Source: Escherichia phage Pu-Krd-SF3
Sequence record: PQ249397
DNA: 64,000 nt
Direction: 5' to 3' (one strand)
The first letter of the stretch is position 1. Each line of letters opens with the position of its first letter. The notes beneath the pieces were generated by a model. It was not told the DNA's origin, did not search any database, and was given only the letters and a program-made list of their open reading frames with translations. Positions 9,132 to 9,785 of the stretch are shown here, piece by piece. The position numbers were made by a program, and so were the translations under genes.

Positions 9132-9334
9132 ATATAATTAATAAGATTTTTGGAATTCAGTACATTAAGGTCACATATAAAGTAACATATAAAGGTCCAT
9201 ATACCGATGAACATGAAGAACCACAAGTTAAGTCTATTATATTAGAAAAGGACCCTAACTGGCCAGTTGAATTTCGTCTTCCTTGCTATGGTCATTGGGC
9301 TGATGTTGAAATTATAAGTATTGAAAATGTCTGA
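9128..9334 (+). CDS. Hypothetical small protein (rIII-ligase island)
   Basis: 68 aa; overlaps neighbours. Confidence 0.45.
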   Translation: MNIINKIFGIQYIKVTYKVTYKGPYTDEHEEPQVKSIILEKDPNWPVEFRLPCYGHWADVEIISIENV

Positions 9335-9785
9335 GTTAGAGATTAGAAGCAATTTTAGATGGCCATCATGCGCATTAAGTAATTTCGCCCATTGGCCTTT
9401 CGTTATGGATGGTATTCAATTTGGAGGTCTTGAAGGATTCCTCCAAGGATGCAAGGTGAAAAACGTTGAACAACAACGTCGTATATTTGGGTTATCCGGG
9501 CTTGCCGCCCAACAAGCTGGACGAGCTTATGCTAGAGCTCAGGACCGTGGGACCCTCTTCTGGCTTGGAGTTCCGTTTTCAAGATACTCCCCGGCGTGGA
9601 AAGAATTATACACAAATGCATATTTTGAAGCAGCGATCCAAAACAAGGGCTTTCGTGATGCATTACAAGCCTCGAAAGGAAAAGTTTTGAAGCACAGCAT
9701 GGCTAGTGGTCTAACAAAAGATGATACAATACTAACCGAAGCTGAATTTATTGATGTGTTAAACCTATTAAGAGACTCTCTATGA
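9327..9785 (+). CDS. NADAR / YbiA-like (DUF1768) protein; positional equivalent of T4 30.3
   Basis: 152 aa from ATG (track starts on TTG at 9321); LSNFAHWPF...DG...EGFLQ resembles the E. coli YbiA/NADAR signature as recalled. Confidence 0.6.
   Translation: MSELEIRSNFRWPSCALSNFAHWPFVMDGIQFGGLEGFLQGCKVKNVEQQRRIFGLSGLAAQQAGRAYARAQDRGTLFWLGVPFSRYSPAWKELYTNAYFEAAIQNKGFRDALQASKGKVLKHSMASGLTKDDTILTEAEFIDVLNLLRDSL

Follow-up and report, generated by a model that had tools for sequence, protein, structure and literature searches.

[quoted passage not shown] AdfN was reported to be necessary and sufficient for the resistance of these phages to DarTG1 but not to DarTG2, a system that modifies thymidine and on which AdfN has no effect (PMC11825919). 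Deletion of adfN abolished the formation of plaques by T4 and T2 on hosts carrying DarTG1. Phage RB69, which is sensitive to DarTG1, has lost the last 15 residues of the protein by a frameshift in its own allele and is rescued on DarTG1 hosts by ectopic adfN of T4 (PMC11825919). The purified protein strips ADP-ribose off DNA modified by DarT1, with the E36A substitution providing the inactive control. In vivo, the E36A and K43A variants of T4 AdfN afforded partial rescue only, truncation of the C terminus reduced activity and impaired the protein in vivo, and two-hybrid assays gave no sign of an interaction between AdfN and DarT1 (PMC11825919).

Substrate specificity was also reported by Cihlova et al. 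(Toxins 2024; PMC11125620), according to whom the T4 protein hydrolyzes guanosine-ADPr but not thymidine-ADPr in vitro, and all NADARs tested cleaved guanosine-ADPr on DNA and none cleaved thymidine-ADPr. The Methods (4.2) of that report describe the construct as "E. coli T4 phage NADAR (gp30.3; residues 1-208)" versus the 152 residues of T4 gp30.3, a difference that may reflect tags or another annotation. In a transposon screen of T4 (HIDEN-SEQ; bioRxiv 10.1101/2025.11.20.689424), insertions in 30.3/adfN were lost specifically on DarTG1 hosts; the gene was nonessential on K-12, and the main text of the preprint reports no phenotype in the absence of DarTG1.

The action of T4 AdfN depends on infection. 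In two laboratories, the protein failed to protect uninfected E. coli against DarT1 (PMC11825919; PMC11125620); protection was seen during T-even infection, and non-T-even phages were rescued weakly (PMC11825919). A model in which the free-standing enzyme is sufficient is thus incomplete, and a T-even phage factor was postulated by the AdfN authors to explain the infection dependence (PMC11825919).

Other NADARs provide points of comparison. According to PMC11543638 and PMC11125620, a charged position at the end of the last β-strand is occupied by Glu in YbiA, by Asp in DarT1-linked NADARs, and by His in the phage gp30.3 subgroup, of which this residue is the hallmark, the phage NADARs with His in place of the Glu of YbiA or the DarT1-linked Asp having been described by Schuller et al. 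(Mol Cell 2023; PMC11543638). YbiA itself is bacterial and has been linked to riboflavin metabolism (PMC11543638; PMC11825919; PMC11125620). Two further phage NADARs, AdfN(Bas32) and AdfN(Bas60) of T5-like phages and Vequintavirinae, protect against DarTG1 and not against DarTG2. These two proteins fall in other clades of the NADAR family, were acquired independently, and neutralize DarT1 without phage infection, which the T4-type protein does not (PMC11825919).

An intact ortholog of T4 gene 30.3

The gene described here lies in the window, i.e., the whole stretch of 64,000 nucleotides of DNA that was analyzed. Over the 2.4 kb surrounding the gene (positions 8600-11000), the window is 100% identical to Escherichia phage Pu-Krd-SF4 (PQ759884.1) and 90-99% identical to hundreds of Tequatrovirus genomes. 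On the basis of these nucleotide identities, the window belongs to a Tequatrovirus. An ORF of 152 codons had originally been predicted at 9327-9785, and its limits were confirmed, since the frame runs intact and at full length from the ATG at 9327 to the TGA at 9783-9785 (Table 1). The mechanically delimited ORF begins two codons earlier, at an in-frame TTG (9321), giving 154 residues; the annotations of T4 (AF158101, 128307-128765) and of PQ759884.1 both use the ATG at 9327. The overlap between the start of adfN and the end of gene 30.4, which is also found in T4, suggests translational coupling of the two genes.

Table 1. Position of adfN and of its sequence features in the window
Feature	Position (strand)	Description
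adfN coding sequence (T4 gene 30.3 ortholog)	9327..9785 (+)	152 aa plus stop; based on ORF list, identity to T4, and PF08010
Overlap of adfN start with end of gene 30.4 (9128-9334)	9327..9334 (+)	8 nt; likewise in T4
N-terminal NADAR motif, L17-S-N-F-A-H-W-P-F25	9375..9401 (+)	A16, L17, S18, N19, F20, and F25 invariant; aligns with FSNFAAWPI of YbiA
Catalytic motif, E36-G-F-L-Q-G-C-K43	9432..9455 (+)	E36, GAA at 9432-9434; K43, AAG at 9453-9455
H123 (CAC)	9693..9695 (+)	Invariant in 92 homologs; end of the last β-strand, directly after model strand 120-122
C-terminal helix, residues 138-152	9738..9782 (+)	Intact; sequence identical to those of T4 and T2; model helix 138-151
ATGA overlap of adfN stop with start of gene 30.2 (9782-10645)	9782..9785 (+)	Likewise in T4

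The deduced protein is identical to T4 gp30.3 at 149 of 152 positions (98%), in a gap-free alignment of two proteins of equal length. The three substitutions relative to T4 (Q22H, S67A, and I125M) are all located at nonconserved columns of the alignment of 92 homologs, and the protein is equally close to gp30.3 of T2, in which M125 is also present. At the nucleotide level, identity to T4 30.3 is about 97%, and the differences over the 501 aligned nucleotides are mostly synonymous. Length, position between 30.4 and 30.2, E36, K43, H123, and the C-terminal helix are shared with T4 AdfN, which like the window protein belongs to PF08010.

T4 has an additional annotated gene, 30.3', which is an out-of-frame ORF internal to 30.3 (T4 128402-128629) equivalent to positions 9463-9690 (+) of the window. 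The ATG of this ORF is replaced by ACG in the window by a substitution that is silent for adfN (AAT to AAC), leaving a TTG at 9466 as the sole remaining start, for an ORF of 74 residues. In this sequence comparison, the loss of the start is mild evidence that 30.3' is not a conserved gene. Within adfN, at 9463-9479 (+), there is also a small hairpin resembling a terminator, ACGTTGAACAACAACGT, with a T-rich tail. Scanning of positions 6800-12800 identified promoter-like sites (20 found versus 22.5 expected) and terminator-like sites (4 versus 3.2) at the level of chance, and these scans therefore provide no information on expression.

The order of the genes in the window matches that of T4, namely, rIII, 30.9...30.4-30.3-30.2-30.1-30 (ligase)-alt.1-alt. 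The collinear T4 gene (AF158101) is thus 30.3, located between 30.4 and 30.2 and upstream of 30.1 and the DNA ligase gene 30. The description of this region as a hypervariable accessory island, which was part of the original prediction, can be retained in part. In T2 (LC348380.1, 123233-126664), genes 30.8 and 30.5 are missing and 30.4 is shorter than in T4 and the window, so that gene content between rIII and 30.3 differs among close relatives; in more distant phages, the genes flanking the adfN homologs are wholly different. However, the gene order is identical to that of T4, adfN is retained in T2 as in T4 and the window, and the gene is widespread, with a tblastn match in 1,510 of 50,697 phage records. 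Truncated gp30.3 alleles were found in the complete genomes of the T4-like phages SV76 (109 residues), vB_Eco_NR1 (107 residues), UGJNEcP4 (91 residues), and vB_EcoM-RPN226 (86 residues), suggesting that losses of adfN in nature, like that in RB69, are not rare.

NADAR fold and active-site residues

Pfam analysis of the window protein returned a single family, PF08010 (Phage_30_3), with a match spanning the entire profile (positions 1-138 of 138; E = 1.4e-69; 232.6 bits for a cutoff of 36). The NADAR profile, PF08719, which had been proposed as a check with the lack of a significant hit counting against the assignment, gave no match in hmmscan even at E ≤ 10. No family was matched in NCBIfam or in PADLOC, a single-sequence phmmer search of the PDB yielded a spurious match only (E = 0.7), and the protein fell solely in phrog_652 ("unknown function") of the PHROGs. 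We read the failure of the PF08719 scan as a limit of sensitivity and not as evidence against homology. The direct Pfam scan misses the NADAR link, and its detection requires either a fold search or a profile constructed from related sequences.

Searching a large protein collection identified 107 homologs, all belonging to PF08010, several of which bear the JGI label "YbiA (DUF1768 family)". PF08719 was matched by 36 of the 92 homologs that were scanned singly (best E, 1.5e-7). A profile of 93 family members retrieved E. coli YbiA (2b3w) as its best match in the PDB, and the resemblance to YbiA that had been noted in the original prediction is real, albeit with an E value of 0.014. In the profile alignment, the consensus "LSNFapheFvldG...smEGFLqslkf" faces "FSNFAAWPIKVDG...tsEHYFQAQKF" of YbiA. 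The AlphaFold2 model of the window protein was of high confidence (mean pLDDT, 92.8; pTM, 0.88), and Foldseek, too, ranked the same three structures at the top. By these comparisons, the window protein has the YbiA/NADAR fold. Membership in the NADAR family is visible only through the fold, the transitive matches of relatives to PF08719, and the match of the family profile to YbiA.

Conservation was assessed in an alignment of 92 full-length AdfN homologs, in which P13, A16, L17, S18, N19, F20, F25, E36, G37, F38, Q40, Q50, A61, H123, L136, and T137 are invariant and K43 is conserved in at least 90% of the sequences. The motifs from which the family had been recognized are found as quoted, LSNFAHWPF corresponding to residues 17-25, DG to residues 28-29, and EGFLQ to residues 36-40. 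E36 and K43 align with the Glu and Lys residues of "EHYFQAQK" in YbiA, i.e., with the NADAR motif E-x-[FY]-x-Q...K. The window protein retains all the residues and elements singled out in the literature (E36, K43, H123, and the C-terminal helix). Its fold and its catalytic residues are those of a NADAR, although the relationship goes unnoticed in a plain profile scan.

The window protein differs from two bacterial NADAR types. DarG1 proteins, such as the Geobacter lovleyi NADAR (8bat) and the NADAR of E. coli C7, are encoded next to darT1, whereas adfN of the window is flanked by 30.4 and 30.2 with no darT1 gene. DarG1 comprises 219 residues including an N-terminal extension, which is missing from the 152-residue window protein, where the NADAR motif starts at residue 17. 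The Asp of the last strand of DarG1 is replaced by His (H123). T4 AdfN, which differs from the window protein at three family-variable positions only, is unable to replace DarG1 in uninfected cells (PMC11825919). Membership in the DarG1 group was rejected for lack of a toxin gene and of the N-terminal extension and for the presence of His instead of Asp. E. coli YbiA (2b3w; NADAR/DUF1768, PF08719) displays about 20% identity to the window protein, which has no PF08719 match, and carries at the last strand the Glu that defines its subfamily. The presence of His at this position in the window protein led to the rejection of membership in the YbiA subfamily.

Neighboring genes and the postulated T-even factor

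The infection dependence of T4 AdfN raises the question of a partner. The factor postulated for T-even phages could be a cotranscribed and translationally coupled neighbor of adfN, for which gp30.2 or the small gp30.4 would be the candidates; we regard this proposal as improbable. ORFs located immediately upstream and downstream of adfN were clustered for 86 loci from phage records and viral contigs. A homolog of gp30.2 was found within 3 kb of adfN in 22 of these loci, directly downstream in 16, and a homolog of gp30.4 was found directly upstream in 13. These two proteins formed the only sizeable neighbor clusters, which were confined to T4-like phages and a few other Straboviridae (Ac42 and AB1I1T). 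No universal partner gene was detected among the 86 loci, the distant ones having unrelated neighbors, and this fits with adfN being an "orphan" gene that moves independently of its neighbors. Gene 30.2 is nowhere mentioned in the main text of the T4 transposon-screen preprint (bioRxiv 10.1101/2025.11.20.689424), and gp30.2 is a weak candidate for the T-even factor.

The gene for gp30.2 (9782-10645, +) immediately follows adfN throughout the Tevenvirinae-like phages. Its 287-residue product contains HAD-type motifs ("LTDIDGV" at residues 6-12 and "YIDD" at residues 148-151) and falls in phrog_420 ("unknown"); it had no match in Pfam (E ≤ 10) and no sequence match in the PDB (E ≤ 1). Identity to T4 gp30.2 (278 residues) is 90%, the difference in length being located in the Pro/Tyr/His-rich C-terminal region, where the window contains a 24-bp tandem repeat (positions 10488-10543; 2.3 copies; 90% matches). 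In Vibrio phage 6E35.1a (locus L007, 2953-3459), the adfN homolog is overlapped at its end by a gene for a 5'(3')-deoxyribonucleotidase of the NT5C type (PF06941, E = 6e-11), which is an HAD-family protein different from, and barely alignable to, gp30.2. The adjacency of NADAR and HAD genes may be recurrent or a coincidence.

Function of AdfN and alternative explanations

We consider it highly probable (about 90%) that the gene encodes the Tequatrovirus ortholog of T4 gp30.3/AdfN, a stand-alone ("orphan antitoxin-like") ADP-ribosylglycohydrolase of NADAR fold that acts as published for T4. In an infected DarTG1-bearing host, DarT1 would ADP-ribosylate guanines of the phage DNA, thereby blocking replication. 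AdfN would hydrolyze the guanine-ADP-ribose bond, restoring replicable DNA and enabling the phage to escape, and would neither bind DarT1 nor act on the thymidine-ADPr generated by DarTG2. Orthology, fold, conservation of the catalytic residues, and integrity of the ORF were established in this analysis; enzymatic activity and the counter-defense phenotype are those of a 98%-identical protein, T4 AdfN (PMC11825919). We infer that the Q22H/S67A/I125M allele behaves like T4 AdfN, a difference in specificity being a remote possibility.

The original prediction of a NADAR-type enzyme reversing the ADP-ribosylation of guanine by DarT agrees with the published function of T4 AdfN (PMC11825919). The proposed role against DarTG-type defense applies to DarTG1, which produces guanine-ADPr, but does not extend to DarTG2, which targets thymidine (PMC11825919). 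Two of the tests proposed with that prediction would lead to the wrongful rejection of a correct idea, since the PF08719 scan is negative and coexpression with DarT fails outside infection. The lesson for method is that an assay based on rescue from a coexpressed toxin would wrongly score T4-type AdfN as inactive.

A main or additional role of AdfN against another ADP-ribose-based system, exerted in part by binding instead of catalysis, is unlikely. Candidate systems would include other DNA ADP-ribosyltransferases targeting guanine, RNA-ADP-ribosylating defenses, and NAD+/ADPr-dependent systems such as Retron-Eco1. The AdfN authors suggested that NADARs could act whichever toxin wrote the mark and cited a phage NADAR that, unlike AdfN, needs no enzymatic activity (Retron-Eco1 paper, reference 37 of PMC11825919). 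Partial rescue by the E36A and K43A variants (PMC11825919) also speaks for such a role, but two-hybrid assays showed no binding to DarT1, the E36A protein was inactive on DNA in vitro (PMC11825919), and the phenotype of adfN deletion is specific to DarTG1 hosts and complete (PMC11825919; bioRxiv 10.1101/2025.11.20.689424). Another possibility is that AdfN is a regulator erasing the marks of the phage's own ADP-ribosyltransferases (Alt, and ModA and ModB, which are encoded elsewhere) rather than a counter-defense protein. The window contains the gene for the Alt ADP-ribosyltransferase (12609-14660, +; ORF of 683 residues) about 3 kb downstream of adfN, so that an ADP-ribose writer and an eraser are both encoded in one early region, and alt is also nearby in T4 and in Acinetobacter phage Ac42. 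This linkage is, however, not maintained at most distant loci. In addition, the gene is dispensable on K-12, with no phenotype reported without DarTG1 in the main text of the transposon-screen preprint (bioRxiv 10.1101/2025.11.20.689424), and the tested NADARs act on guanosine-ADPr of DNA (PMC11125620), while Alt is annotated as targeting a protein, the α subunit of RNA polymerase. This regulatory role is accordingly very unlikely.

A further alternative, a housekeeping N-glycosidase of the YbiA type acting on intermediates of the riboflavin pathway, is in our view extremely improbable. The YbiA subfamily is defined by the last-strand Glu, where the AdfN family has an invariant His (H123); the NADAR clade closest to the T4-type proteins in the published tree is the DarT1-associated one and not YbiA (PMC11825919); and the DarTG1 phenotype explains the retention of AdfN. 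It is also highly improbable that the window allele is inactive or decaying, in spite of the precedents provided by the RB69 frameshift (PMC11825919) and by the truncated gp30.3 of SV76, NR1, UGJNEcP4, and RPN226, since the ORF is full length, the C-terminal helix is that of T4 and T2, every invariant residue is present, and the nucleotide differences from T4 are mostly synonymous.

The assignment of adfN to an anti-DarTG1 function is not new, as experiments have already demonstrated this function for the T4 ortholog, and the finding matters little beyond annotation. The matching record, PQ759884.1, and most records of T4-like phages label the gene merely as "hypothetical protein", and reannotation as adfN is possible. 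For the biology of these phages, the assignment predicts that those with a truncated gp30.3 (SV76, NR1, UGJNEcP4, and RPN226) would be sensitive to DarTG1. It also predicts that the phage of the window would resist E. coli carrying this system, which may bear on the prediction of host range for therapeutic T4-like phages.
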